From contig JBEKHC010000027.1 in the NCBI GenBank assembly GCA_050012475.1, positions 1 to 53,109 on the forward strand: a DNA stretch of 53,109 nucleotides. Reading direction: 5' to 3'. Numbering within the stretch: the first letter of the stretch is position 1; the number at the start of each line of letters is the position of its first letter. Below, one piece after another: positions 37,945 through 52,563 of this stretch. Position numbers and translations under genes: made by a program. The notes under the pieces are model-generated. The model was not told the origin of the DNA, did not search any database, and worked only from the letters and a program-made list of their open reading frames with translations. Source of the stretch: Candidatus Velthaea sp. Its GTDB lineage: Bacteria > Vulcanimicrobiota > Vulcanimicrobiia > Vulcanimicrobiales > Vulcanimicrobiaceae.

Positions 37945-39174
37945 ATGACGGTCGCGACCGCTTCGGCACTGTTCATCGCGTTTTGCACGATGATCCTCGT
38001 CGGTGTGAGGCCCAAGGGCATCCCCGAGTGGATCTGGGCGGTCGCCGGCGCTGCGCTCCTTTGCGCGTTGCGAATCGAGCCGCTCGATGCGGCACTGCGC
38101 GCGATGAGCGCGCAATGGAACGTCGTGCTTTTCATCCTCGGGTTGATGGGGATCTCGGCGGCGGCCGAATGCAGCGGTCTGTTCGAATGGGTGACGGACG
38201 TCGTGCTCGAACGCGCCGGCGGCGTGCGCCGCCGATTGTTTGCGCTGCTGTTCACCATCGGCGGCCTGCTGACGGTCGTTCTATCGAACGACGCGACCGC
38301 GATCGTTTTCACGCCGGTCGTGTATCGGGCGGTCGCCAAACGCGGGATCGATGCGCTGCCGTATCTCTACGCGTGTACGTTCGTTGCCGACACCGCGTCA
38401 TTCGGGCTGCCGTTTTCCAATCCGGCAAACCTGCTGGTGATCGCACGGCCGGCGCTCGGCGCATACGCCGCGCATCTCGGACCGCCGATGCTCGTCGCAT
38501 TCGCGCTCAATTTGGCGGTGTTCTTCGTCCTGTTCCGCAAGCAGTTGCGGGGCCGGTACGAGGCCGGGCGAGCCGAACCACTGACGCCGCGCGCCCGGCG
38601 CACGCTCATCGCGATGCTGGGCGTTGCCGTCGCCTATGTGGCGGCTTTGCTCGTCGATTGGCCGCTGGGGCCGGTCGCGCTCGGGGGAGCGTTCGTCGCC
38701 CTTGCCGTTGCGGGGGTCGGGCCGCGCGCGGCCGCGGATCGCATCGGCTGGCCGACGTTCGTCTTGCTCGCGGGCCTGTTCGTTCTCCTCGACGCCGTTT
38801 CGCGCGTCGGACTCGTCGGTTGGGCGCTGCAATGGGTGCACGATGCCGAACGCGACGGACGCCTGGTCACGATTTTGGGCGCGGCATTCGGCTCGGCGCT
38901 GGCCTCCAACGTGCTCAACAATCTCCCGGTCGCCATTCTTTCGGGCAACATCGTCGCACATGCGAATGCGAGCCCGTTGGCGTACGCATTGATCGCGGGC
39001 GTCGATCTCGGTCCGAACCTCACCACGACCGGCTCTCTGGCCACCATTCTCTGGCTGGCCATTCTGCGCGAGCGCGGAGTGGAAGTCCGGCCGCTCGAAT
39101 ATCTGCGCCTCGGCTTGAGCGTCGTCCCGGCGATGCTCCTGGTCACGTCGCTGTGGCTCTGGTTCCTGCACTAA
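37945..39174 (+). CDS. ArsB/NhaD-family anion transporter
   Basis: SNDATAIVFTP, ADTASFGLPFSNPANL, NNLP and GVDLGPNLTTTGSLATILW motifs. Confidence 0.9.
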   Translation: MTVATASALFIAFCTMILVGVRPKGIPEWIWAVAGAALLCALRIEPLDAALRAMSAQWNVVLFILGLMGISAAAECSGLFEWVTDVVLERAGGVRRRLFALLFTIGGLLTVVLSNDATAIVFTPVVYRAVAKRGIDALPYLYACTFVADTASFGLPFSNPANLLVIARPALGAYAAHLGPPMLVAFALNLAVFFVLFRKQLRGRYEAGRAEPLTPRARRTLIAMLGVAVAYVAALLVDWPLGPVALGGAFVALAVAGVGPRAAADRIGWPTFVLLAGLFVLLDAVSRVGLVGWALQWVHDAERDGRLVTILGAAFGSALASNVLNNLPVAILSGNIVAHANASPLAYALIAGVDLGPNLTTTGSLATILWLAILRERGVEVRPLEYLRLGLSVVPAMLLVTSLWLWFLH

Positions 39175-39179
39175 TCATG

Positions 39180-39227
39180 GGATGCGTGCTCTCGGCTTCG
39201 CTCGGATGGGTGCCCTCGGCTTCGCTC
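39180..39227. repeat. Two tandem 24-bp repeats
   Basis: GGATGCGTGCTCTCGGCTTCGCTC / GGATGGGTGCCCTCGGCTTCGCTC (2 mismatches), followed by a decayed third unit. Confidence 0.75.
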
Positions 39228-39304
39228 GGTACGCCCGACCCCTCCGGCTTGGGCGAAGGTTGAAACGCGACGGGTTGCGCGCTGCAACCCACGAGGAGAA
39301 GAGG

Positions 39305-39796
39305 ATGAACGCGCTTGCGATCTGCGTTGACGGAGTAGAAGATGACGAACTCATTGACGCCGCCCTTGCGTGGACCGCTCGATTCGACCGGATCGACGTT
39401 TGGTGCGCGTACGGCGACGCCGCCGCGCGGGAGTTGGCGTACGTACGCGGGCGTCACGGCCGGCCGCCGCCCGAGCATCACGCGCCGCCGCCCGGACCGC
39501 CTCCCCCGCCGCACCACGACAGCGTTGACCAAGAGCAAGCCCAGGCGATCGTACAACGCGCGTCGGCGCTGCTGCGGGCGCACCAGATCGATGCCCACGA
39601 GCGCATCCTGGGCGGCTCGGATTCCGGTCACGCACTGGCGCAAGCGAGTACCCCCGACGTCGCGCTGTTTCTCGCAGCGGGACACGGCGCCGGCACGGGA
39701 CCAAAATCGGTCGGGCACGTCGCGCGTTTCGTCATCGACCACGCGGTTGGGCCGGTGATCGTCGTGCGTCTTCGCTCCGGCGCCGAGCGTTGGTGA
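39305..39796 (+). CDS. Universal stress protein (USP)-like protein with Pro/His-rich insertion
   Basis: LAICVDG N-terminus and GPKSVGHVARFVIDHAVGPVIVVR C-terminus; GAGGAG/GAGG RBS. Confidence 0.8.
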   Translation: MNALAICVDGVEDDELIDAALAWTARFDRIDVWCAYGDAAARELAYVRGRHGRPPPEHHAPPPGPPPPPHHDSVDQEQAQAIVQRASALLRAHQIDAHERILGGSDSGHALAQASTPDVALFLAAGHGAGTGPKSVGHVARFVIDHAVGPVIVVRLRSGAERW

Positions 39797-39806
39797 AACG
39801 GCAATG

Positions 39807-39845
39807 AAAACGACAATGCCGGCGCAGGTGCGCCGGCATTGTCGT
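39807..39845 (-). terminator. Intrinsic terminator of the S53 protease gene (copy 1)
   Basis: Perfect stem ACGACAATGCCGGCGC-aggt-GCGCCGGCATTGTCGT, with a short T-run on the minus strand; lies between convergent genes. Confidence 0.8.
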
Positions 39846-39864
39846 CCCCTCGCTTCGAAGGCGG

Positions 39865-41085
39865 TTAGAAGGCCGCGATCCCGTTCGGGCTGCCCAGTCC
39901 GGCGGGGCCGCTGTAACCGCTGCCCGCGCTGCACAAGTATGCCGTCGAACACGTGCCGTTCGTGCCGCCGGTGACCGCGAAGAGCGCGCTGCGGTTCGCG
40001 TAGAGCGAGGATGCAGCGTTCAGCTCTGCACCGTTGGCCGCGAGGGCGTAGACGCCGGCGACGATCGGTGTCGAGACGCTGGTGCCGCCCATCTGGATCC
40101 AGCCGCTATCCTGATACGAATCGTACACCGCGACCGGCGTGTTCGGATCGCCGACCGCCGCGACGTCCGCCACGGTCCGCATCGCGCAGCCGCTGTCTGT
40201 TTGCCAGGTGGGCTTGGCGGCATACGCGCTGCAGCCGCTTGCAGTGCCGGACCAGACCGTTTCGGTCCAGCCGCGTGCCGTCGAAGCGGCCGCGACCAAC
40301 GATGTCGCGCCGACCGCGATCACGTTCGGCGCTGCGGCGGGCCAATCGACGCTACCATAGCCTTGATCGCCGGCGGCGGCAACGATCGGAACGCCCGGGT
40401 GCGACCACGCCGCGGCCGATTCGCTTTTCGTTTCGGGGATCGCGTAACTATTGCTCACGACGGTCGCGCCGGCGCTGATCGCGGCCGAAACCGCGGCGGC
40501 CAGATCGCTGCTTTTCGTCGACTTCGCTTCGCTCACGACCAGTTTGCATTGCGGACAAATCGCCGACGCCATGTCGACGTCGATCGAAAACTCGTGCGCC
40601 CAGTTGACGTCGGCTTGCGGCTTATTTTTTGCCGTGAGAACGGTCAAACAGCCGCTGCTCGACGAGCACGCGGGAAGGCCGAAGGTGGAGCGGTACACCG
40701 CTAGATCCGCCTCGAGATTCGGATCGTCGTTGACGGCGACGATCCCGATCGTCTGACCGCTGCCAGCAGTCGCCGACGGTAAATTATACGCACTCTGCAG
40801 ATCGCCCGGATGGAATCCGGGAACCTGGCCGGCCGGCGTCGTCGGACCGTACACGGCGCCGCCGGCGATTTTGACATTCGTGCAGCCGGCGATGCCCGTC
40901 GAGCCGGCCGGACAGCCGGCGGCCAGTGCGCGCGCGCCTTCGCCGGTGCGCTGCGAGCCCACGACGGTCGTGCTGACCGGGGCGCCAGTGCTTGGAACTG
41001 CGGTCGACGACACGCCGGAGCTACATGCGGGTAACGCAAAAACAGCCGTCACGGCGAGCCGTTGGAAAAGTCTCCTTGAAATCAC
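39865..41085 (-). CDS. S53 (sedolisin-type) serine protease lipoprotein, copy 1
   Basis: LPAC lipobox; DLQSAYNLP...GSGQTIGIV, HEFSID (E-x3-D), AAAGDQG oxyanion Asp, GGTS nucleophile and GLGSPNG C-terminus. Confidence 0.88.
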   Translation of the reverse strand: MISRRLFQRLAVTAVFALPACSSGVSSTAVPSTGAPVSTTVVGSQRTGEGARALAAGCPAGSTGIAGCTNVKIAGGAVYGPTTPAGQVPGFHPGDLQSAYNLPSATAGSGQTIGIVAVNDDPNLEADLAVYRSTFGLPACSSSSGCLTVLTAKNKPQADVNWAHEFSIDVDMASAICPQCKLVVSEAKSTKSSDLAAAVSAAISAGATVVSNSYAIPETKSESAAAWSHPGVPIVAAAGDQGYGSVDWPAAAPNVIAVGATSLVAAASTARGWTETVWSGTASGCSAYAAKPTWQTDSGCAMRTVADVAAVGDPNTPVAVYDSYQDSGWIQMGGTSVSTPIVAGVYALAANGAELNAASSLYANRSALFAVTGGTNGTCSTAYLCSAGSGYSGPAGLGSPNGIAAF

Positions 41086-41146
41086 ACGTCCATCCTTTGG
41101 TCCAAGGTCGATCGCCTCGGGCGCTTAAATTCTCTCGTCCGTTTTG

Positions 41147-41174
41147 CTATCGGCACTTCGTCAAGCAAACATTA
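41147..41174 (-). promoter_or_regulatory. Sigma28-like promoter of S53 copy 1
   Basis: Minus strand TAATGTTT-N12-GCCGATAG versus the E. coli sigma28 consensus TAAAGTTT-N11-GCCGATAA. Confidence 0.65.
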
Positions 41175-41182
41175 CCTGGACG

Positions 41183-44100
41183 TTACGGAATCTTGAGCGT
41201 CGGCGCTTTGCCGAGCCGGCCGAGCACGACGCGGACCATCGCCTCGACGACCTCGGGATCGAATTGCGTTCCGCGGTTGCGGTCGAGTTCGTCGAGTGCC
41301 TCCATCGGTGAAAGCGGCAGGCGGTACGGGCGCCGCCCGATCATCGCGTTGAACGAGTCGGCGACGGCGACGATGCGCGAAGCCAGCGGGATCGCGCCGG
41401 ACCGCAGTCCGTCGGGATAGCCGCCGCCGTCGAGGCGCTCGTGGTGAGCGCGCACGACCGGCACGAGCGGTGCCAACACCGGCACGCGGCCCAGGATGCG
41501 GCCGCCTTCCGCGGCGTGATCGCGCATGATCGCCCATTCATCCGGACTGAGCCGGCGCGGCGCGTCGAGGATTGCCGACGGCGTGCGCATCTTGCCGATA
41601 TCGTGGATGAGGCCGCTGCGCGAAACGTACGTGATTTCATCTTGCGTCAAGCCGAGGACGCGGCCCAAGCGCGCACACCATGCCGAGACCGCCCGCGAAT
41701 GTTCGGCCATCAGCGGTGCGGCTTCATCGAGCCGTTCGATGAGCGCTTCGATCGACGCGTCGACGTTTTCGGCCAGCCGGACGAAGCCCGGAGCGGTGGG
41801 GAGAAACGCCGCGACCTGTTGGCGCACGGTGCCCAACGCCTCCGGCGCGCTACGCTCGAGGCCGGCCTGTTCGGTCGCCCAGTGCTCGAATCGCGCGCGC
41901 AGGCCGCTCTCGCCGGACTGCGGCGCTGGGGCCGCCGCGAACCAGCCGCGCAGCGAGCCCGCATCGCCGCATTCGACGGCAGCCGCGAAGCGCTCCGCCG
42001 GATCTTGGCGAGCCAGGATCGCGCCGATAGTCTCGCTCGCGCGCGCGGACCGGCGCGGCAATGCCTCGATCAACTTTGCCATGCCGCCGAAGGACACGTT
42101 CCACAGTTTCGCGAGCGGGACGGTAAGCTCGCGCGCAAAGCGTTCCGGGTCGGCCCAGCCGGCGATCATCGCCCCGACGACGCCGCGCAGCGCGCGCAAC
42201 CGTGGCGCCGTCCCGAGCGTGAGGTCGTCGGCCGCATTTGTCCAGCGGCGGGCTGCGTCGACATCGTCACCGGCGAGCGCCGCCAGGGCGAGCGTGAGCA
42301 ACGCCAACCCATATTGGGTTGGCCGTTCGGAGCACGCGCGCAATGCGTCGCGGGCTTTGCCGCACGCCTCCTGGGCGGCATGCGCTTCGCCGGCCGCCGC
42401 GCAATACAATGCGATCCACGCCCAGCACGACGCCGTGCGCGCCGGCGTTCCTTGATGCTCGGCGGTCGGCCGAAGGAGCCGTTGCGCTGCATCGAAGTCG
42501 CCGCTCCAGCCCGCGCGCAGCGCCTTTGCGGGGAGCAGCGTCTCCATCGTCGCGGCGGTGCCGTCGTGCTTTTCGATCGTCGCGAGCTGACGATCGAGTT
42601 CCGCGATCGCTTCTTCGTTGCCGGCTTCGACGTGCAATTCATACGTGCAGAGCGTGACGTAGAGATCGAAACGCAGCGTTCCCGACCTGATCCCGACGTT
42701 GCGCATGCACTCCAGATACTCCAAGCACGCGGCGGCGTCGTCGTCGCAGTCGTACGCGATCTGATAGAGCACCGAATAGGTTGAGGCGGCGACGTCGTAG
42801 AGACAGTTTGCTTCCGCCAGCGGTGCCGCGATGCGCGCACGTTCGCGCGCCAGCACCGGGTCGCCGCTTTCGATGGCGACGTACGCCGCTCGGGCGAGAA
42901 CGCGAGCGCGCAGCGCCTCCGATGAGTTCGGGTCGAGCTGCGCCAGCGCTGCGTTCGTTTGCGCGACTGCTTCGTTCAGGCGGTTTGCGGCGGTCAGCGC
43001 CTGACCGAACGACGATCGAACGTCGGTGAGAACGGCGCGCGGGAGCGTCGTCGAGTCGACGAACGGAGCCAGCACGTCGCAGGCGTCGTCACGCCGGCGC
43101 AGGGCCAGCTCGCGCGCATAATACGTCGCGATGGCAACGCGCACCGCTTCGTCGTCCGCCTTCTCCAAACCGAGCCGAAACCAGGCTTCGGCCGTGTCGA
43201 GCCGCCCGCCGCGCGCTTCGAGGTAGCCGCGCAGAGCGGTCGCGCTCGCACCCAGCGATTGTTCGGGCGTGCCGAAAGCCTGCAGCGTTTCGTTGACGAC
43301 ATCGACCTCGCCGGCTTCCAGAATCTCGAAACCATGCGCGTCGAGCAGCCGGCTCATCGGATCGATCAGGCGGTTGCGGGTGGCGACCTCCAGCGCCGCG
43401 GCCGGGCGGCCGGAGAGCGTCAGCGCCTCGACTGCTCCCAGCGCGATGACCGCTCGCATTTCGGGAGCGCACGATCGAAATTGCCGGTCGAGATAGTCGC
43501 GGAAGCGGTCGTGAAAGCGAAGGTTTCCGTCGACTTGCCGGTCCCACAGAAACCCCGCGTCTTCGCTGAGCGCGCGGATGATGGCCGGCGCATCGTCCCA
43601 TCCGCAGAGCGCGAGCAACTGGCCGTCGGTGCTCGGAAGCAGCGTCGCGCTAAACAGAAATGCGCGTTCCGCTGCGGTACGCCGGGCAAAGATTCGACCC
43701 GCGATGGCGGCGAAGTCTGCCGGGATGCCTTCGGCGGTGAACTCGTGCGGATCGCAGCGCAAGCGCGTGAGGGCGTAGTCGACGGCGATCGCCAATCCGC
43801 CGGTCGCCGCGCACAGCGTGTCGACTTCCCGGGAATCGAGTCCGAGACCCGAACGCCGGGCTGCCTGCGCGATCTCGTCGTGCGTGAATCGCAGTTCTGC
43901 TTCGTCGATGGGGCGCTCCATCCGCCGCGTCGCCATCCAGAGCGGGATGGGGAGCGCGCCGACGCTGCGGACCGTCAGCGTCAGGGGCGAGTCCGGCCGG
44001 AGTTCGACCAGCTTGGCGATGAAGGCGGCGATGCTCGGATCGTCGGCGGCGTGCAGATCGTCGACGACGAGGTGCCGCTCGATGCCGTGCACGTGTTCGG

Positions 44101-44443
44101 CCAACCAATGGGCGAGCACGATCGCCGGTGCGGGAGATTGCAGCGCTCGTTCCCACGCTCGGGGAAACGACGCTTGGGCTCCCGGAGCAGCGCCGGCGAC
44201 CGCGCAGGCCAGTCCGTGAACGAAGCGCGCGAACGTCGTTACACCGTTGCCGGCCCGAAAATAGATCGCGTTCGGGTCGGACCGCAACGGCCGCACGAGT
44301 TCGCTCTTGCCCGCGCCGGGCGGCCCGGCGATGACGGCGATCGAAGCCGCGGCAGGTCCGGCCAATCGGCCTTCGAGGCGTGGGCGGGAGAGATGTTCGC
44401 GCGCCTCGTCGCCGGAGCGCGGTTGTCGATCGAGCAGCATCAT
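41183..44443 (-). CDS. MalT/LAL-type STAND NTPase-helical repeat protein fused to a C-terminal HD-GYP phosphodiesterase, copy 1
   Basis: RPRL, GPPGAGKS, LVVDDLH, LRFTHDE and FHDRFRDYL MalT-like motifs; C-terminal EHS, HDIGK, RDH, HHERLDGGGYPDGL, VAD, RPYR and GTQFDP. Confidence 0.88.
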   Translation of the reverse strand: MMLLDRQPRSGDEAREHLSRPRLEGRLAGPAAASIAVIAGPPGAGKSELVRPLRSDPNAIYFRAGNGVTTFARFVHGLACAVAGAAPGAQASFPRAWERALQSPAPAIVLAHWLAEHVHGIERHLVVDDLHAADDPSIAAFIAKLVELRPDSPLTLTVRSVGALPIPLWMATRRMERPIDEAELRFTHDEIAQAARRSGLGLDSREVDTLCAATGGLAIAVDYALTRLRCDPHEFTAEGIPADFAAIAGRIFARRTAAERAFLFSATLLPSTDGQLLALCGWDDAPAIIRALSEDAGFLWDRQVDGNLRFHDRFRDYLDRQFRSCAPEMRAVIALGAVEALTLSGRPAAALEVATRNRLIDPMSRLLDAHGFEILEAGEVDVVNETLQAFGTPEQSLGASATALRGYLEARGGRLDTAEAWFRLGLEKADDEAVRVAIATYYARELALRRRDDACDVLAPFVDSTTLPRAVLTDVRSSFGQALTAANRLNEAVAQTNAALAQLDPNSSEALRARVLARAAYVAIESGDPVLARERARIAAPLAEANCLYDVAASTYSVLYQIAYDCDDDAAACLEYLECMRNVGIRSGTLRFDLYVTLCTYELHVEAGNEEAIAELDRQLATIEKHDGTAATMETLLPAKALRAGWSGDFDAAQRLLRPTAEHQGTPARTASCWAWIALYCAAAGEAHAAQEACGKARDALRACSERPTQYGLALLTLALAALAGDDVDAARRWTNAADDLTLGTAPRLRALRGVVGAMIAGWADPERFARELTVPLAKLWNVSFGGMAKLIEALPRRSARASETIGAILARQDPAERFAAAVECGDAGSLRGWFAAAPAPQSGESGLRARFEHWATEQAGLERSAPEALGTVRQQVAAFLPTAPGFVRLAENVDASIEALIERLDEAAPLMAEHSRAVSAWCARLGRVLGLTQDEITYVSRSGLIHDIGKMRTPSAILDAPRRLSPDEWAIMRDHAAEGGRILGRVPVLAPLVPVVRAHHERLDGGGYPDGLRSGAIPLASRIVAVADSFNAMIGRRPYRLPLSPMEALDELDRNRGTQFDPEVVEAMVRVVLGRLGKAPTLKIP

Positions 44444-44615
44444 GCGTTGAGCATCGGTGACGTCGGACTACTCCTCGGAAAGGGGGCAGCGGCGCCGGTG
44501 TCCTGTTCTTGTCATCGGTCAACCGACGCGCAAACGCGAGGAACGGCAGCGGCGCAAGCGGTGCGCGCGGGCGAGGCGCTCCGCTTGCGCATCGTGCGCA
44601 AGAGGTGGAACCGCG

Positions 44616-45851
44616 TTAGAAGGCCGCGATGCCGTCGGGCGAGCCCATGCCGGACGGGCCGTTATAGCCGGCTTCGGCGGTGCAAAGATACGCGACCGTG
44701 CAGATTCCGTTCGAGCCGGATGTCACCGGGAACAGCGAACTCGCGTGGGTGTACAGCGATTGCGCGCCGGTGAGCGAGGCGCCGTTGCCGGCCAGTGCGT
44801 AGACACCGGCGACGATCGGGGCCGAGACGCTCGTTCCACCCATTTGGATCCAGCCATTGTCCTCATACGTGTCGTAGACGGCGACGGGCGTATTGGGATC
44901 GCCGACCGCTGCCACGTCGGCAACGGTGCGCATCGAACAACCGGAGTCCAGCTGCCAGGACGGTTTCGCGGCGACGGCGCTGCAGGCACTGCCGGTTCCG
45001 GACCATGCCGTTTCCGTCCAGCCGCGCGCCGTTGCAGCGTTGGCGGTCAGGGTGGTCGCGCCGACCGCGATGACGTCGGTCGCCGCCGCCGGCCAGTTCG
45101 CCGTCGAGTAGCCGGTATCGCCGGCCGCAGCAACGATCGGCACGCCGGTATGAGCCCACGTCGCGTTGGCTTCGGGAGCCGATTCCGGGATCGCAAAGCT
45201 GTTGCTCACGACGGTGGCGCCGTCTTTGACGACCGCAGCGTCGGCGCCCACGAGATTGACCGCCGCATTGGTGGCGATCTGCGCGACGATCAGTTTGCAA
45301 TTGGGACATACCGCGGAGGCCATGTCGACGTCGATCGACGCTTCGTGCGCCCAATTCGCGCTCGCAGCCGGCGCGCCGGTTCCGGTCAAAATCTTCAAGC
45401 AGCCGCTCGCGGACGTGCAGGCTGGCAAACCGAACGTCTTGCGATACACCGCGAGATCGCTTTCAAGGTTCGCGTCGGTGCCAATGACGACGATGCCGAT
45501 CGTCTGTCCCTTGCCCGCGGTCGAAGCGGGCAGTTTGTAGGCCGACTGCAGATCGGCGGGGTGAAAGCCGGGGATCTGCGCGGCCGTCGCGCTCGCGCCC
45601 AGCGCGGTACCCGCAACTTCGATGTTGGTGCAGTTACCGGTTTCGAGAACGGCCGCCGTCCCCGAGCAATTCGCGGCAAATGCGCGCGCGCTTTCGACCG
45701 ACCGTTTCGCGATCGTGGTGCTGACGGCGCCGGTGTCCGTCGCGGAAGCTTGCGTCGTGGGAACTTGCGCCGAGGAACCGCCGGTGCTGCACGCGGGCAA
45801 CGCGAAGACTGCGCAGACGGCGATGCCTTGGAACAATCGATTTTTGAACAA
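44616..45851 (-). CDS. S53 (sedolisin-type) serine protease lipoprotein, copy 2
   Basis: LPAC lipobox; HEASID, AAAGDTG, GGTS and GMGSPDGIAAF; colinear paralog of 39865-41085. Confidence 0.88.
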   Translation of the reverse strand: MFKNRLFQGIAVCAVFALPACSTGGSSAQVPTTQASATDTGAVSTTIAKRSVESARAFAANCSGTAAVLETGNCTNIEVAGTALGASATAAQIPGFHPADLQSAYKLPASTAGKGQTIGIVVIGTDANLESDLAVYRKTFGLPACTSASGCLKILTGTGAPAASANWAHEASIDVDMASAVCPNCKLIVAQIATNAAVNLVGADAAVVKDGATVVSNSFAIPESAPEANATWAHTGVPIVAAAGDTGYSTANWPAAATDVIAVGATTLTANAATARGWTETAWSGTGSACSAVAAKPSWQLDSGCSMRTVADVAAVGDPNTPVAVYDTYEDNGWIQMGGTSVSAPIVAGVYALAGNGASLTGAQSLYTHASSLFPVTSGSNGICTVAYLCTAEAGYNGPSGMGSPDGIAAF

Positions 45852-45897
45852 AATTCCGCCCTAATCTTGATGCCGAAAGGAGTGTATGGTTCCTGTG

Positions 45898-45924
45898 TTA
45901 TCGGCACTTCGTAAGGGAAATGTA
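45898..45924 (-). promoter_or_regulatory. Sigma28-like promoter of S53 copy 2
   Basis: Minus strand TACA-N15-GCCGATAA; shares the 14-mer ACGAAGTGCCGATA with the copy 1 promoter. Confidence 0.65.
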
Positions 45925-48900
45925 AGGTTTCGGTTCGGGAATCTTGATCGCTCCGGGATCGGCGAGGCGTCCTGCCACGACGCGAACCATCGCCTCGACC
46001 ACCTCGGGATCGAACTGCGTTCCGCGGTGGCGTTCGAGTTCGCTCAGAGCGTCGGGGGGTGAAAGCGGCAAGCGATAGGGGCGCCGACCGATCATTGCGT
46101 TGAAGCAGTCGGCGACGGTCACGATGCGCGTCGTGAGCGGGATCGCGCTCGAACGCAAGCCGTCGGGGTAGCCTCGGCCGTCAAGACGCTCGTGGTGGCC
46201 GCGGACGATCGGGATCAGCGGTTCGAGCAGCGAGATACCAGCGACGATGCGTGCGCCTTCGGCGGCATGATCGCGCATGATGAGCCATTCTTGCTCGGTC
46301 AGCGCACGCGGAGCGTTCAAGATCTCGGGCGGGGTGCGAATTTTGCCGATGTCGTGGATCAGCCCGCAGCGAGCTGCAAACAAGATGTGCTCTTCATCGA
46401 GGCCCAGAGCCCGGGCGACGCGTGCGCACCAGGCCGAGACGGCACGCGAATGTTCGGCCATCAGCGGCGCGGCTACGTCCAAGCCGTCGACGAGGTCGGC
46501 CAATGCCGCATCGATGTCGTCGTCGACGCGAGCCGGCGACCGCGGGCGCCGGCGATAGGCTCCGAGCTCTCGGCGAACGTGGCCGACTTGCGCCCTTCGC
46601 TCGCGCGCCAAACCGGGGTGCGCGCCGGCCCAGCGTTCGAACTGCTCCGGCAGTGGAGCACCGCAGAAGATCGAGTCGGGTGCCGCATCGAGCCACCGAC
46701 CCAACGAGCCGGCTTCATCTCCGCCGGCAACTACGGCGGCGAAGCGGTTCATCAACTCGCGGCGTGCCAAGACGCTGCCGATTGTTTCGTTCGAGCGCCC
46801 CGGTGCGAATCGGTACGGCAACGCCTCGATGAGTTTCGCCATGCCGCCGAACCAATGTCGGCGCAACCCGTCGAGGACGCTCGGGATGGCCCGATCGAAG
46901 CGCTGCGTGTCGGTCGACGCGTCGATCAGCGCGTTGACCGCGCAGTGCAGCGCGTGGAGCCGGGGCGCGCGGGAGCTCGTCGTTCGATCCGCGCGGCTCG
47001 CCCATTCAGAAGCGCGGTGGACATCGCCGTTGACCCACGCCGTGAGCGCCAGCGTCAGCAGCGCCAAGCCGAACTGCACCGAGGCGGAAGCGGCATGCGA
47101 CAACTCGGCTTCGGCCTTGTGAACGGCCGCATCCGACTGCTCGGGATCGCCGCCCGCTGCGCTGTAGAGCCCGATCTGCGCCCAACACAAGGCTTTGCGC
47201 GCCGGCGTCGCCTGATGTTCGACGGTCGCTCGCAAGAGTCGCCCGGCCGCCGCAAAATCTCCCCTCCACCCCGCTTGGAGGGCCTTCCCCGGAACCAGGG
47301 TCTCCATAACGGCCAGGGCCGTATCGTGTTTGTCGATGACCGCGATCTGGCGGTCGAGCGCGTTCAACGCTTCCTCGTCGCCGGCTTCGGCATCGAGTTC
47401 GTAGAGGCAAAGCAGGACGTAGGATTCGAGCCGCAGCGTTCCCGATTTGATGCCCAGGTCGCGCAGCCGGCAGAGATGGTCGCGGCTCGCGACGGCGTCG
47501 TCGTCGATATCGTACGCGATCTGATACAGCACCGAGTACGTCGAGGCGGCGACGTCGTACAGTGACTGGCTGATCGCGAGCGGTGCGGCAATGAACGCGC
47601 GCTCGCGTGCGAGTTCGGCGTCGCCGCTCTCGAGCGCGACGTAGGCGGCGCGGGCGAAAACGCGCGCGCGGAGCGCAGGCGGCGAGCCGGCTTCGAGCAG
47701 CGCCAACGCTTCATTCGTTCGCGCGCACGCTTCGTCCAGCCGGTTGGCGGCCGTGAGCGCCTGCGCGAACGACGATTGAACGTCGATGAGTTCGGAGCGC
47801 GCGAGCGTGGGCGAGTCGACAAACGGCGCCATGATTTCCCAAGCGTCTTCGCGGCGCCGAACCGCTAACTCGCGTGCATAGTACATCGCGATGCCCAGCC
47901 GCACCGACTCGTCGTGAGCCTTGGACAAGCCCAGCCGAAACCACGCCTCGGCCGTGTCGAGGTGCCCGCGTCGCGCCTCGAGGTACCCGCGCAATGCGCT
48001 TGCGCTCGGCCCGAGCGCTTCTTCGGGGCCGTCGCAGGCACCCAGCGCTTCGCCGATCACGTCGATTTCGCCGGATTCGAGAATCTCGAAGCCGCGTTCA
48101 TCGAGCAGATCGCGTGCCGCTTCGATCAGACCTTGCTTGGTGGCGACTTCGAGCGCTTCGGCGTGACGGCCGGCGGCCGCAAGCGAATCGACGGTTTGGT
48201 GGGCGATGCGCGAACGGAACTCGCGTGTGCAGTCCAGGAAATGGCGGTCGAGATAGGTGCGAAAGCGGTCGTGGAAAGCGATGCCGCCCGCGCTGCGCGT
48301 TTCCCACATGAACGGCGCATCGCTGCTCATGGCGCTGCGCAAAGCGGGGGCATCGTCCCAGCCCGATAAGCCCAGCAGTTCGTCTTCGATCGTCGGGAAG
48401 AGTGCGGCGCTGCGCAAAAAAGCGCGTTCGCGTTCGGTTCTCCGTGCGAAAACGCAATCGGCGATGGCCTCGAAATTCCGCGGAGCACTGCGACGAGAAA
48501 ACGCGAACGGATCGCGGCGCAGTCGCGTCAGCGCGTACGCGAGTGCTATCGCGGATCCGCCCGTGGCCGTGAGCAACGCGTCCACTTCGTGGTCGTACAG
48601 CTTGAGGCCGTGGTGCGCGGCGATGGCGAACGCTTCGGAGCGGTCGAAGCACAGTTCGCTTTCGTCGATCGGCCGTTCCATGCGCCGGGTCGCCATCCAC
48701 AGCGCGATCGGCAAAGCGCCGACGCTGCGAGCGGCAATGGTGAGCGCCGCGTTCGGCCGCAGTTCAGCGAGCTTGCCGATGAATGCGGCGATGCTCGGGT
48801 CGTCGCCGGCGGCGTGCAGGTCGTCGATGACGATCCGTTGATCGAGACCCTGCAGATGCTCGCAGAACCAGTGCGCAAGGACGATTGCGGGCGCGGGCGA

Positions 48901-49203
48901 TTGGAGTGCTCGCTCCCAGGCCCGCGGGAACGACGCTTGCGCCCCGGGGGCGAGCGTCGCACTTGCTTGGGCAAGCCCGTGAACGAAACGCCCGAAGGTT
49001 GCGCGCTCGTTGCCGGCGCGAAAGAAGATCGCTTGGGGATCCGCGCGGAACGGTCGCAAGAGGTCGCTCTTGCCCGATCCGGGCGGTCCGACGAGCACCA
49101 CGATCGGCGCCGCGACGGGCCCTGTCAACCGGCATTCGAGCCGCGGCCGGCCGATCCGATCGACGGGACATGCGTGCGTGGGCGTCTGTGGTTCGAGCAG
49201 CAT
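45898..49203 (-). CDS. MalT/LAL-type STAND NTPase-helical repeat protein fused to a C-terminal HD-GYP phosphodiesterase, copy 2
   Basis: GPPGSGKS, IVIDDLH and FHDRFRTYL; HDIGK, HHERLDGRGYPDGL, RPYR and GTQFDP; start set by alignment with the N-terminus of copy 1. Confidence 0.88.
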   Translation of the reverse strand: MLLEPQTPTHACPVDRIGRPRLECRLTGPVAAPIVVLVGPPGSGKSDLLRPFRADPQAIFFRAGNERATFGRFVHGLAQASATLAPGAQASFPRAWERALQSPAPAIVLAHWFCEHLQGLDQRIVIDDLHAAGDDPSIAAFIGKLAELRPNAALTIAARSVGALPIALWMATRRMERPIDESELCFDRSEAFAIAAHHGLKLYDHEVDALLTATGGSAIALAYALTRLRRDPFAFSRRSAPRNFEAIADCVFARRTERERAFLRSAALFPTIEDELLGLSGWDDAPALRSAMSSDAPFMWETRSAGGIAFHDRFRTYLDRHFLDCTREFRSRIAHQTVDSLAAAGRHAEALEVATKQGLIEAARDLLDERGFEILESGEIDVIGEALGACDGPEEALGPSASALRGYLEARRGHLDTAEAWFRLGLSKAHDESVRLGIAMYYARELAVRRREDAWEIMAPFVDSPTLARSELIDVQSSFAQALTAANRLDEACARTNEALALLEAGSPPALRARVFARAAYVALESGDAELARERAFIAAPLAISQSLYDVAASTYSVLYQIAYDIDDDAVASRDHLCRLRDLGIKSGTLRLESYVLLCLYELDAEAGDEEALNALDRQIAVIDKHDTALAVMETLVPGKALQAGWRGDFAAAGRLLRATVEHQATPARKALCWAQIGLYSAAGGDPEQSDAAVHKAEAELSHAASASVQFGLALLTLALTAWVNGDVHRASEWASRADRTTSSRAPRLHALHCAVNALIDASTDTQRFDRAIPSVLDGLRRHWFGGMAKLIEALPYRFAPGRSNETIGSVLARRELMNRFAAVVAGGDEAGSLGRWLDAAPDSIFCGAPLPEQFERWAGAHPGLARERRAQVGHVRRELGAYRRRPRSPARVDDDIDAALADLVDGLDVAAPLMAEHSRAVSAWCARVARALGLDEEHILFAARCGLIHDIGKIRTPPEILNAPRALTEQEWLIMRDHAAEGARIVAGISLLEPLIPIVRGHHERLDGRGYPDGLRSSAIPLTTRIVTVADCFNAMIGRRPYRLPLSPPDALSELERHRGTQFDPEVVEAMVRVVAGRLADPGAIKIPEPKPYISLTKCR

Positions 49204-49268
49204 CAACCGTTCGACGTGAGGACGTGCGATAGTCCGGTGCCCCGGAATGGGCCAGCCGGCTCTTTTCG

Positions 49269-49296
49269 TTATCGGCTGATGGGCAACCCAAGAATA
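49269..49296 (-). promoter_or_regulatory. Sigma28-like promoter of STAND-HD-GYP copy 2
   Basis: Minus strand TATT-N16-GCCGATAA, 65 nt upstream of the ATG. Confidence 0.55.
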
Positions 49297-49349
49297 CAAG
49301 CGTGAAAGCGGACGCCGGGGGCGGCTCCCGGTCGGCCGAAGGTCACGCG

Positions 49350-50012
49350 ATGCTCGATCCACGCGCAGCGCTCCTGGCGACCCGCACGTACGGCGTGCTC
49401 GTCGGCCGGGTCAAAGCCGGTCGCCTCGATCCCAGCGGCGCGTCGCCGCATTACGAAATCTGGATTGACGCCGGGCGCCCGTACCGCATCGCCGTCAATG
49501 TGCGTTCGGTCGACGGGTCCGAAGTGCTCGTCCACTACGACCCCGCGTACGGCTCGCCGACCAAACGTGACCTGCCTGTGCTGGCGGCGGGGGCGCCCGG
49601 CTTCATACCGCTGGAGACCGGCCCCGGCGGTGCCGGTCTCGACTATCTTCGTGACGGCCTGTTCGCGCTCGCCGACATGCATCCGATCCCGCCCGACGGC
49701 ACGGGCGTGACGCTGCAGAACCTGCTCGACGGCCAGATTCAACGCGCCGTTGCCGATCCGGCAGCCGTCGCGATCGCGTTCGGCGACGGATTTCAAGATC
49801 CAGGCAGCGATCCGACGTTCGGATTCTCGCCCGAAAACGGCGTGCATGACATCCATATGATGCAGGGCAACAGCGGAAGCTTTGCCGCCGACAACCGCAT
49901 CAACGGCGACGGCGCGCTGTTCGTGCGCTATGCCGGCGGCGCGACGCTGGCACTGTTCGTTCGTTTCGCCACGCAATCGACGGTGACGGGCGATGGCGGC
50001 GCGCCGGTTTGA
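49350..50012 (+). CDS. DUF2278/YukJ-family protein
   Basis: PHYEI, YRIAVNVRS, GLDYLR and GVHDIHMMQGN...DGALF motifs. Start uncertain (49302 or 49350). Confidence 0.8.
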   Translation: MLDPRAALLATRTYGVLVGRVKAGRLDPSGASPHYEIWIDAGRPYRIAVNVRSVDGSEVLVHYDPAYGSPTKRDLPVLAAGAPGFIPLETGPGGAGLDYLRDGLFALADMHPIPPDGTGVTLQNLLDGQIQRAVADPAAVAIAFGDGFQDPGSDPTFGFSPENGVHDIHMMQGNSGSFAADNRINGDGALFVRYAGGATLALFVRFATQSTVTGDGGAPV

Positions 50013-50013
50013 G

Positions 50014-51486
50014 CTATGCCGTTGCGCGCCGATCGGCGCTCGCAGGGCGGGCGAAGCAGTACGTGTTCTTCCCGAGCGCCTTGGCCGCGTACATCGCTGC
50101 ATCGGCAGCTTGCATCAACGCGAGTGCCTGATGCCCGTGCGCGGGATACATGGCAATGCCGATCGAGACGCCGACCCGGACGAGATGCCCTTGCACTTGC
50201 AAGGGCACGTTGATGGCGCTGATCATGCTTGCGGCGATGCGCTCTACGGGCTCCTCACCGCGAATGTTGAGGATCAAGGCCACGAACTCATCGCCGCCGA
50301 TCCGCGCCACCATGTCGGTGCGCCGGGTGAGCCGCTGAAGCGTCCGCGCCACGTTTTCGAGTAACGTGTCGCCCACGCCATGACCATAGCGGTCGTTGAC
50401 GGCCTTGAACCCATCGAGGTCGAAGAACATGACCGCCAGGCACTCCGCGTCGCGCTCGGCGATGGCGATCTCGTCGTCGAGCCGATCGATGAACACGGAA
50501 CGGTTCGGCAGATTGGTCAGCTCATCGTGGTACGCAAGATGCCGGATTCGTTCGCTCTTGTGCCAGTGCTCGGTGATGTCGCTGAAGACCGAAACGAAGC
50601 GGACGGCTTGACCGGCGGCGTTGCGGATCATCGTGATCGTTTGGCGCTCCATGAACGTCTCGCCGTTCTTGCGCCGGTTCCAGATCTCGCCCTGCCAGCG
50701 GCCGTTGGTCGTCAACTCACGCCATAGCGCGCGGAAAAATTCCGGACCCTGACGATCGGATTTGAGAAAGCGCGGATTCTTGCCGACGGCGTCGGCAAGT
50801 GAATAGCCCGTGATCTCGGTAAAGGCCGGATTCACCGAGACGATCGTGCCCTCGGCATCGGTAACGAAGATACCGTCGGCCGCGTGATTGAAGACGGCGG
50901 CCCCGATTTCGAGTTGAGCCTCGGCATTCTTCACGACCGTGATATCGTTGACGAAGACGAAAAAACCTAAAACATGCCCCGCCGGGTCGATGTCCGGATT
51001 GTAGTTGACCAGCAGATGGCGGATGCTGCCGTCGCTCTTGGGCACGGTGCGCTCGTAGCAGAGCTTCTCGCCCGCGAGCGCCGCTCGGAGGTAGGGCTCG
51101 TTCTCGCGGAAGAAGCGCTCATCCACCAGTTCGCGGTAGTGCGTCCCCAGCACCGATTCCGGCGTTTTTCCGAACCAATCGAAAAAGGCGCGGTTGGCGT
51201 AGCGGCAAAGCAGCTCCGCGTCCCAATACGCGACCGTTCCGGGCAGAGCATCGATGATCGTTGCGAGAAACGTTTCTCGTTGTGCCCCGGCCCAGCGCCT
51301 TACCGGACCATTTTCGTTCAATTCGTTTGCCTCGAACCCGGGCAGCGTACGTGGCCCGTACCGATGTTTTCGTCCGAGGCGGCGCTTGACTTGAGCCTTC
51401 ACTCCCCGAAGGGGGAGCTCGAGCGAACGCGCGCTCGAATTGTACGCGCGCTCGAATTGTAAACGGTGGTCCCCGGCTGAATTCAT
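50014..51486 (-). CDS. PAS-PAS-GGDEF diguanylate cyclase
   Basis: Two PAS/PAC domains; HDELTNLPNR, FFDLDGFKAVNDRYGHGVGD, RRTD (RxxD I-site), ARIGGDEF and ADAAMYAAK motifs. The true start may be ~100-170 nt further into the ORF. Confidence 0.92.
   Translation of the reverse strand: MNSAGDHRLQFERAYNSSARSLELPLRGVKAQVKRRLGRKHRYGPRTLPGFEANELNENGPVRRWAGAQRETFLATIIDALPGTVAYWDAELLCRYANRAFFDWFGKTPESVLGTHYRELVDERFFRENEPYLRAALAGEKLCYERTVPKSDGSIRHLLVNYNPDIDPAGHVLGFFVFVNDITVVKNAEAQLEIGAAVFNHAADGIFVTDAEGTIVSVNPAFTEITGYSLADAVGKNPRFLKSDRQGPEFFRALWRELTTNGRWQGEIWNRRKNGETFMERQTITMIRNAAGQAVRFVSVFSDITEHWHKSERIRHLAYHDELTNLPNRSVFIDRLDDEIAIAERDAECLAVMFFDLDGFKAVNDRYGHGVGDTLLENVARTLQRLTRRTDMVARIGGDEFVALILNIRGEEPVERIAASMISAINVPLQVQGHLVRVGVSIGIAMYPAHGHQALALMQAADAAMYAAKALGKNTYCFARPASADRRATA
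51427..51460. repeat. Perfect 17-bp tandem direct repeat
   Basis: ACGCGCGCTCGAATTGT at 51427-51443 and 51444-51460. Confidence 0.85.
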
Positions 51487-51529
51487 TAGACCGGAACAGA
51501 TGCTTCTCCGACACAATCGTGGGTCGGCC

Positions 51530-51561
51530 GTGGTGTTGATAAGGGGGGTTATCAGCACCAC
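51530..51561. other. Putative tyrosine-recombinase crossover site (13-6-13)
   Basis: GTGGTGTTGATAA-GGGGGG-TTATCAGCACCAC: arms are 12/13 complementary, with a dif-like ATAA-N6-TTAT centre, 24 nt upstream of the recombinase ATG. Confidence 0.75.
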
Positions 51562-51585
51562 AGGCACCACTTTCGGCCGACTCGA

Positions 51586-52563
51586 ATGACCCCCAGCGTG
51601 ATCGACGTTCCGCCGTCAGCCTCCCCAACCGTCGCCCGGGCCGTCACCACCGCGCGCAAGCTCATCGCCGGCGCGACCTCCGAGAACACGCGGCGCAGCT
51701 ACGCGACGGGCTGGCGACAGTTGAGCGCCCACGCGCAGAGCCTCGGACTCGAGCCGCTGGGGGCGCACCCAGCCCTTGTCGCCACCTTTCTTGGGTCGCT
51801 TCGCGACGGCGGGGCCTCGGCTCAGACTCTCGGCTCCCGGGCCGCGGCGATCCGGTTCTTTCATCGCGCGGCGGGCCTGGCGTCGCCGACCGATCAGCGG
51901 GTGGTGCGCGACCTGCTCGAAGGCGCCAGACGCGAAGACGCCGGCCGCGACCACGGCCGGGCGACCATTACCGCGAAGCGGCTCGCCGCAAGCATCGAAC
52001 TCCAAGGCCCGCCGGCGACGCCGATCGCGATCCGCGACCGCGCGATTCTACTCCTCACGTTCGCCTCGGGCCGGCGGCGGGCTGAGATCGCGGCCCTTAA
52101 CATCGAGGACCTCGACTTCGGCCGGCCTGGCTTTCTGATCGTGACGATCCGCAAGAGCAAGACCGACCAGGGTGGGGCGGGACAGTTTGTGGCGGTGCCG
52201 CGGCTCGAACACGGGCCGTGCGCAGTGGCAGCGGTTGAAGCGTGGCTGGCGATTCGCGAGCAGAAGAAGGGACCGCTGTTCGTCGCGTTTTCACCGCACG
52301 GCGAGCTCCGCGAAACGCGGATCGAGGGGCGGCTCGTGGCCGAAGTCCTGAAGCGACTCTTCCGGGATGCCGGTGCCTCACGGAGCGACGTCGACGCGAT
52401 CGGCGCCCATAGTCTGCGCCGGGGGTTCGTGACGTCGGCCGACATGGCCGGCGCGACGACCGCGCAAATCATGGACGTGACGGGACATCGGGATCCGAAG
52501 TCGCTGCGCCGTTACACCCGCCGCGAGTTGCTGCACGATCCGGTGCTCCTAAAGCTCTTTTAA
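51586..52563 (+). CDS. Cre-like tyrosine recombinase/resolvase
   Basis: SENTRRSY core-binding domain; RDRAILLL...GRRRAEI, KSKTDQ, HSLRRG and TGH...LRRY give the complete R-K-H-R-H-Y catalytic set. Confidence 0.93.
   Translation: MTPSVIDVPPSASPTVARAVTTARKLIAGATSENTRRSYATGWRQLSAHAQSLGLEPLGAHPALVATFLGSLRDGGASAQTLGSRAAAIRFFHRAAGLASPTDQRVVRDLLEGARREDAGRDHGRATITAKRLAASIELQGPPATPIAIRDRAILLLTFASGRRRAEIAALNIEDLDFGRPGFLIVTIRKSKTDQGGAGQFVAVPRLEHGPCAVAAVEAWLAIREQKKGPLFVAFSPHGELRETRIEGRLVAEVLKRLFRDAGASRSDVDAIGAHSLRRGFVTSADMAGATTAQIMDVTGHRDPKSLRRYTRRELLHDPVLLKLF

Follow-up and report, generated by a model that had tools for sequence, protein, structure and literature searches.

The stretch of DNA analysed here, referred to as the window, is a contig of 53,109 nucleotides from Candidatus Velthaea sp. 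of the Vulcanimicrobiaceae. Its reverse strand encodes, at 41183-44443, a protein (P0001) that runs from a MalT-family STAND, made up of an NTPase, a winged helix and helical repeats, through a linker into a C-terminal HD-GYP domain. The parts of the gene are as follows.

41183..44443 (-): STAND-HD-GYP fusion, copy 1 (P0001), 1086 aa; from the open reading frame, Pfam/NCBIfam matches, an AlphaFold model and Foldseek.
43739..44392 (-): MalT-type NTPase and helical domain, about aa 18-235, with RPRL, Walker A, Walker B, sensor-1 Arg159 and the GxP equivalent; from alignment to MalT (8bob) and conservation in 31 fused rows.
44303..44326 (-): Walker A motif GPPGAGKS, aa 40-47, its Lys kept in 29/29 covering rows.
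44051..44068 (-): Walker B VVDDLH, aa 126-131; DD in 30/31 rows.
43154..43738 (-): winged-helix domain plus arm, about aa 236-430, containing the His311 of FHDRF; from the MalT alignment and a match of the cluster representative to WHD_MalT (PF25873).
42053..43153 (-): sensor of SUPR/TPR-like helical repeats, about aa 431-797, with the FGGMAKLIEALP cap helix at its end; from model helices and the Foldseek match to 6mfv.
41768..42052 (-): "linker", about aa 798-892, the truncated remains of a once separate HD-GYP partner's N-terminal helical domain; from hhalign and from other fusions that retain the whole domain.
41225..41767 (-): HD-GYP domain, about aa 893-1073, with H915, H947, D948, K951, H976, H1000, H1001, Y1009, D1029 and R1038-x-x-R1041; Leu911 at the E185 site of PmGH, Asn1032 at D308 and Ala961 at K235.
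41717..41719 (-): Ala909, where PmGH has its putative general-acid Asp D183; from alignment and the PmGH literature.

A MalT-type STAND joined to an HD-GYP domain

The open reading frame and all motifs quoted in a first-pass annotation of this DNA are present in the sequence. Those of the STAND part fall at residues 20 (RPRL), 40 (GPPGAGKS), 126 (VVDDLH), 214 (TGGLAIA), 310 (FHDRFRDYL) and 785 (FGGMAKL), and those of the HD-GYP end at 909 (APLMAEHS), 947 (HDIGK), 973 (MRDH), 1000 (HHERLDGGGYP), 1028 (ADSFNAM) and 1038 (RPYR). Residues 15-422 match NCBIfam MalT (E 1e-17; 63.5 bits against a whole-protein cut-off of 537 bits). Alignment to E. coli MalT 8bob (E 9e-10) places Walker A, Walker B, the sensor-1 Arg and the winged-helix His in register, with H311 aligned to MalT YHPLF, which holds the ADP-contacting winged-helix His. 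The sensor-1 Arg is conserved in 30/31 fused rows and the winged-helix His in 27/31. The structural features of a MalT-family STAND can be traced in P0001: a P-loop nucleotide-binding domain, a helical domain with winged helix, and an arm followed by a TPR/SUPR sensor with cap helix. The profile match, the 8bob alignment and Foldseek agree with the earlier assignment of the N-terminal ~800 residues to MalT-type STANDs. The same annotation pointed to a missing proline in the GxP motif, which is less telling than it seemed: MalT itself reads VSGWATA there, and Pro is present in 13/31 aligned fused relatives. The missing Pro was rejected on these grounds as a sign of a broken NTPase.

In the AlphaFold model of P0001, built from 31 relatives (pLDDT 83, pTM 0.73), the NTPase and the winged helix are followed by a long solenoid of helices, then by a helical segment (806-878), a stalk (891-908) and an HD-GYP fold. 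Foldseek ranks the STAND PH0952, MalT and DvhD first and also matches PmGH and PA4781. At the C-terminal end, residues 902-1065 match Pfam HD_5 (E 7e-36), and the H...HD...H...HH...D ligands, the GYP loop and three C-terminal helices of the HD-GYP family are all found. The hallmark of MalT/LAL activators, a C-terminal LuxR helix-turn-helix (HTH), is absent. Scans for it (GerE) gave no match in the whole protein or in the junction region alone, and none is visible in the model, in agreement with the first-pass annotation.

The fusion is not a product of the assembly. When residues 1-800 are used as the query, 33/36 homologues also carry HD_5 (own-genome copies included). The junction between sensor and linker near 42052 is bridged by contigs of two other public peat runs:

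41579-42091: peat run X3 record 10, spanning the junction near 42052.
41858-42781: peat run X4 record 18, spanning the junction near 42052.

These independent contigs, the lack of listed indels and the 33 fused homologues rule out a chimera or frameshift as the source of the fusion. Near-identical, window-like DNA occurs in soil and peat metagenomes. In the one RNA run, all pieces are short, and most of them cover the peptidase genes and spacers. No promoter-like sites were found in 39000-50000, and terminator-like sites are not in excess there.

Unfused relatives and the origin of the fusion

Relatives in the Vulcanimicrobiaceae have a P0001-type STAND as its own gene directly upstream of a separate HD-GYP gene. 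The tails of 37 separate STANDs divide into 24 with a GerE match and 13 with none, so that relatives of the N-terminal part do end in a LuxR HTH, as the first-pass annotation proposed to check. Its suggestion that the output changed from DNA binding to an HD-GYP domain also finds support in these HTH-bearing relatives and in the conserved NTPase motifs. All 13 GerE-negative STANDs in the first locus set have an HD-GYP gene next, and some of those loci were found through an HD-GYP match. A second set was chosen by STAND match alone (it leaves out the repeats L070 and L082 and the cut first STAND of L105). Here, HD-GYP directly follows 21/23 HTH-less STANDs, with one exception near a contig end, and 1/15 HTH-bearing STANDs; an S53 peptidase gene follows 11/15 of the latter. 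The order STAND, HD-GYP, S53 occurs unfused in four loci (L095, L099, L100 and L110) and is the window order with one stop removed. An in-house hidden Markov model classifier divides 126 near-full-length STAND representatives into 66 with an HTH, 53 without and 7 fused. The STAND family is present in 77/90 genomes of the family. This tally and that of 39/41 related genomes include the unpublished genomes G024, G036, G101 and G107, and three loci from unpublished genomes (L012, L078 and L080) are left out of all counts and trees.

Some loci depart from this order. In L038, L043 and L056 one STAND is followed by two tandem HD-GYP genes. HTH-bearing MalT-like STANDs occur as tandem pairs in L057, L058, L059 and L104, and the pairs of L057-L059 are then followed by an HD-GYP gene. 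At L002:8162-9808 (-), a GGDEF domain precedes a STAND-like P-loop NTPase in one protein, and the gene converges on the unfused S53-STAND-HD-GYP module. L108:1476-5372 (+) has a STAND-HTH and an S53 peptidase in a single open frame of 1299 aa; the frame still contains a start and a signal peptide that belong to the peptidase, so this junction is likely an erroneous frameshift read-through.

In trees of the STAND part, P0001's clade comes out as monophyletic (100), inside a set of STANDs whose HTH is lost or eroded. For one of these trees, 13 redundant or partial rows were dropped. All fusions are placed in this way in two further STAND trees (21/21 and 14/14), and the HD-GYP tree recovers the same subclades. 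The trees therefore indicate that HTH loss preceded fusion. The first-pass annotation had pictured a one-step exchange of HTH for HD-GYP, and this does not hold: the nearest unfused relatives are already HTH-less or eroded and lie directly upstream of a separate HD-GYP gene. The trees, together with the descent of the linker, rule out a direct swap.

The ~110 residues that the annotation regarded as a linker derive from the HD-GYP partner. Separate HD-GYP proteins begin with a helical domain of ~130 aa without a known family, and all 29 homologues found with this domain carry HD-GYP. The fused linker aligns to it by hhalign (79%, E 1.6e-5), which is a modest match over 37 columns, and seven solenoid control windows reach at most 3.4%. 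In other fusions (P0046, P0048, P0052 and P0054), STAND and HD-GYP are still separated by all or most of this domain (E 3e-21 to 5e-8), and this comparison settles the origin of the linker as the partner's N-terminus. Given the linker homology and the domain retained in these fusions, the P0001 gene reads as a read-through of two neighbours, and the alignments indicate that the first ~40 residues of the partner were lost in P0001's clade. The partner domain is modelled confidently as a bundle of five to six helices. No Pfam family was matched by more than 1/18 of its members, a sequence search of the PDB gave no match with E <0.26, and the Atlas gave no usable match.

Almost the whole linker domain is deleted in some fusions, namely the third fusion of this genome (L003, G000:C7), P0019, P0044, P0047, P0049 and P0051. 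In the four of these that belong to a second fused clade (P0044, P0047, P0049 and P0051), the deletion accompanies a change from Asp to Asn at the D183 site.

A single origin of all fusions is rejected (approximately unbiased (AU) test, p 5e-38), and the trees thus indicate that STAND-HD-GYP fusion occurred at least twice. The second large fused clade has members named Ca. Baltobacteraceae, L102 and P0163 form a separate fused pair, and the singletons P0055, P0181 and L106 may be real fusions or errors. Among 41 related genomes, full-length matches of the P0001 type are confined to its own genus (4/4 genomes), and 45 genomes of other families of the phylum have none at E 1e-120. A full-length fusion in L055, from Candidatus Velthaea sp. 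(a Vulcanimicrobiaceae genus), is 57% identical. Long open frames at G003:C137 and G008:C1 were considered as further fusions and proved to be other reading frames or split genes.

The window itself holds a tandem pair of fusions, each followed by a peptidase gene:

45898..49206 (-): STAND-HD-GYP fusion, copy 2 (P0002), about 1101 aa (the longest open reading frame starts at 49362); 61% identical to copy 1, with Ala at the D183 site.
39865..41085 (-): S53 (sedolisin/kumamolisin-like) peptidase after copy 1, with a lipobox-like LPAC and E-x3-D, AAGD and GGTS motifs.
44616..45851 (-): second S53 peptidase, after copy 2, 64% identical to the first, with a lipobox-like motif.

The S53 peptidase matches kumamolisin (E 4e-18) and has the Glu-x3-Asp, the oxyanion Asp and the Ser nucleophile. 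In the whole genome, 4/9 S8/S53 genes lie beside P0001-family STANDs. The genome has six close STANDs, of which three are fusions (two in the window and one on C7) and three are unfused. The unfused STAND on C22 (L004, G000:C22, 1342-11317) has a clear HTH and lies in a lanthipeptide dehydratase/YcaO/nitroreductase (thiopeptide-like) cluster. The one on C6 has a weak HTH (GerE E 4e-6), and in the one on C12 the HTH core is deleted and there is no GerE match. The C6 and C12 STANDs each have, 8-10 bp downstream, a separate HD-GYP gene that is 58-59% identical to the P0001 HD-GYP domain; the next HD-GYP paralogues in the genome are 40-42% identical.

Upstream of copy 2, a PAS-PAS-GGDEF diguanylate cyclase is encoded on the same strand at 50014-51570 (-), about 0.65-0.8 kb away, with a DUF2278 gene between them at 49302-50012 (+). 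A tyrosine recombinase of the phage integrase family at 51586-52563 (+) lies 2 kb from the tandem pair, close to the end of the contig. By a motif check, GGDEF genes flank 7/15 loci, and the window cyclase is a possible opposing partner of the fusions.

Active site and proposed mode of action of the fused HD-GYP domain

The seven metal ligands, K225, Y285 and R-x-x-R (PmGH numbering) are kept in 34/34 fused rows, a count that includes two duplicated sequences. HD-GYP ligand counts leave out L031 and P0036, which have no motif match, and the ungrouped L043b. RPYR at 1038-1041 corresponds to the RxY[K/R] motif for c-di-GMP guanine binding, and both Arg residues are present in 37/38 clade members; a survey describes this motif as a mark of c-di-GMP specificity (bioRxiv 2021.11.05.467447). 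The E185 site, the acidic third-metal ligand of PmGH, is Leu911 in P0001 and Leu or Trp in 38/38 clade members, so the trinuclear hallmark is absent and the metal centre is of the two-metal type. The same survey treats absence of E185 as a mark of the two-metal, usually pGpG-producing HD-GYP type. The Glu of "EHS", which had been listed as a metal ligand, instead adjoins the H189 equivalent. Across 31 fused rows, mean identity is highest in the HD-GYP domain (70%), intermediate in the STAND parts (55-59%) and lowest in the linker (38%).

In some STAND-linked HD-GYP domains, both fused and unfused, the HD or HHE motif is broken (L106:1259-4255, L093:1848-2801, L031:4354-5376 and P0181). From these sequences, the HD-GYP partner seems to degenerate in several lineages.

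There is about an even chance, in our estimate, that P0001 is a ligand- and ATP-gated c-di-GMP phosphodiesterase; its gene likely arose when an HTH-less STAND gene fused with the HD-GYP gene directly downstream. In MalT and PH0952, ligand on the solenoid is described as leading to ADP/ATP exchange and oligomerisation (PMC10427625, PMC6468293). By analogy, resting P0001 would be an ADP-bound monomer, ligand would bind the helical-repeat sensor, and ADP/ATP exchange would open the nucleotide-binding oligomerisation domain (NOD) and lead to oligomers. PmGH (PMC4159591) and DvhD (PMC13090378) are reported to dimerise via the helical stalk that precedes their HD-GYP domain, which suggests how oligomer state could affect activity: oligomerisation may re-set the stalk at aa 891-908 and pair the HD-GYP domains. 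The paired domains would then cleave c-di-GMP to give pGpG, using a two-metal centre; without the general-acid Asp, this reaction would probably be slow. On this analogy, it is plausible that ATP or oligomerisation gates the enzyme. The co-encoded surface S53 peptidase might make or remove the STAND ligand; the link of S53 genes to STANDs is consistent with a peptide signal, which is speculation.

Several observations weigh against a gated phosphodiesterase of this origin. At the D183 site, 38/38 members of P0001's fused clade have Ala (25) or Ser (13), and P0001 itself has Ala; the site is Asp in 33/33 unfused HD-GYP partners, and among generic HD-GYPs it is Asp in 39/69 and Ala in only 2/69. 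D183 has been proposed as the general acid of PmGH, where the D183A change is reported to abolish activity (PMC4159591). The first-pass description of the domain as intact is therefore sound for the seven metal ligands and RxxR and is called into question by Ala909; as a whole it is doubtful and appears overstated. D308 is changed to Asn and K235 to Ala across the whole STAND-linked HD-GYP clade, where 66/69 generic HD-GYPs have Lys at K235, so the substrate or the rate may differ; VCA0681 is described as active without D308 (PMC4212101). On the side of origin, an older STAND clade with an intact HTH also has HD-GYP genes next, and the adjacency may therefore have begun as that of a regulator and its target gene. 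One HD-linked member, L110, keeps a clear HTH. The loci are kin, and their adjacency counts are not independent events. A single event for P0001's clade and the second large fused clade is not rejected (AU p 0.41), and the trees come from quick searches under LG+G4, with no mixture model.

The altered acid site could also mean that the HD-GYP domain of the fused clade binds metal and c-di-GMP and barely cleaves it, so that c-di-GMP becomes an input to the STAND, which would act through contact with another protein, a diguanylate cyclase for example. We consider this unlikely, and it is the most serious of the alternatives. The D183 equivalent is lost in 5/11 members of the second fused clade as well as throughout P0001's clade, versus 0/33 unfused partners, and the R-x-x-R and Tyr substrate contacts are kept. 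HD-GYP receptors exist, as the report on DvhD describes (PMC13090378), and a PAS-GGDEF gene lies on the same strand in the window; GGDEF genes also flank other loci. However, DvhD lost its metal ligands, whereas all seven are invariant in the fused rows. V-cGAP3, a phosphodiesterase by its PDB name, aligns a Ser with D183, so an Asp at this site is not universal. Apart from the HD-GYP domain, the P0001 model, which lacks the HTH, shows no output domain.

It is improbable that the HD-GYP domain is instead a constitutive phosphodiesterase that the STAND scaffolds, localises or stabilises, the fusion being a passive loss of stop and start between adjacent genes. The genes already lie only 8-10 bp apart in the unfused pairs of this genome, and the linker, the least conserved part, is largely deleted in the C7 copy and P0019. 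Yet the NTPase motifs stayed under constraint after HTH loss and fusion, HTH-less STANDs kept the HD-GYP neighbour in 21/23 loci, and fusion recurred. Less probable still, to the point of being remote, is a conflict system resembling NOD-like receptors (NLRs) in which the STAND senses an invader, such as a phage, and the HD domain destroys another nucleotide signal. Bacterial STANDs include the antiviral Avs proteins (as described in PMC10427625), Avs3 stands at rank 7 of the fold matches, if with a TM-score of 0.13, and the K235 and D308 changes could mean another substrate. Against this, PADLOC finds no match for the STAND or the peptidase and only weak ones, to Cas3-HD, for the HD domain, and the STAND occurs in most genomes of the family. 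The architecture is MalT-like with a C-terminal effector, in place of the N-terminal toxic effector that is the Avs/NLR hallmark, and the neighbours seen are housekeeping and signalling genes.

Taken further, the gated phosphodiesterase leads to a tentative proposal that we hold with clearly less confidence. A large Vulcanimicrobiaceae family of HTH-less MalT-like STANDs might dock a dedicated HD-GYP partner through its helical domain and form NLR-style signalosomes that gate c-di-GMP breakdown on a peptide cue from a co-encoded surface protease. P0001 would be the fused end-point, and its missing catalytic Asp could point to a further shift, in which the enzyme turns into a c-di-GMP sensor.

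Relation to known systems

Both parts of P0001 belong to known families, and their joining was not found in the literature searched, which held no description of a MalT-type STAND-HD-GYP architecture or of the two-gene module. In the main text of an HD-GYP survey (bioRxiv 2021.11.05.467447), a word search finds no occurrence of AAA, ATPase, MalT or TPR; its image tables and supplements lie outside that search. The known role of MalT-family STANDs is to activate transcription, and that of HD-GYP enzymes is to serve as the output of REC, GAF, PAS or globin sensors. The lineage described here holds each step between the two as living genes, from an intact HTH through an eroded HTH and an HTH-less STAND with a separate partner to a fused whole partner and a fused truncated partner without the catalytic Asp. 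With this series one can readily test how the sensing machinery of a transcription factor comes to serve a second messenger, and whether oligomerisation of a STAND can gate an HD-GYP enzyme. P0001 also points to a signalling module of an acid-soil and peat phylum that is abundant and has few cultures.

P0001 shares with E. coli MalT/LAL proteins the order of nucleotide-binding domain, helical domain, winged-helix domain, arm and SUPR, followed by a C-terminal effector (its position as described in PMC10427625), with aligned motifs and a TM-score of 0.75 to 8bob. It differs in lacking the LuxR HTH, in having an HD-GYP domain as effector and in an identity of about 20%. DvhD, an HD-GYP c-di-GMP receptor (PDB 9rbz), is the top HD-GYP fold match, and its D183-site Asp is likewise absent in the alignment; it is described as having no HD motif and binding no metal (PMC13090378), whereas the metal ligands are invariant in P0001's clade. 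With PmGH, PA4781, V-cGAP3 and RpfG-type proteins, P0001 has in common the H...HD...H...HH...D ligand set, GYP, RxY[K/R] and the helical stalk. Its input is an ~800-aa STAND rather than REC, GAF, PAS or globin, and its D183, E185, K235 and D308 sites are changed.

The best fold match overall is PH0952, an archaeal STAND with a TPR sensor (PDB 6mfv, E 1.7e-9), which resembles P0001 in its NOD, arm and TPR sensor with cap helix. STAND-cyclase proteins, such as the mycobacterial cyclase-NB-ARC-LuxR proteins and soluble adenylyl cyclase, represent a similar joining of a STAND switch to a second-messenger enzyme. These proteins make the messenger with an N-terminal enzyme, whereas P0001 would degrade it with a C-terminal enzyme in the place of the HTH.

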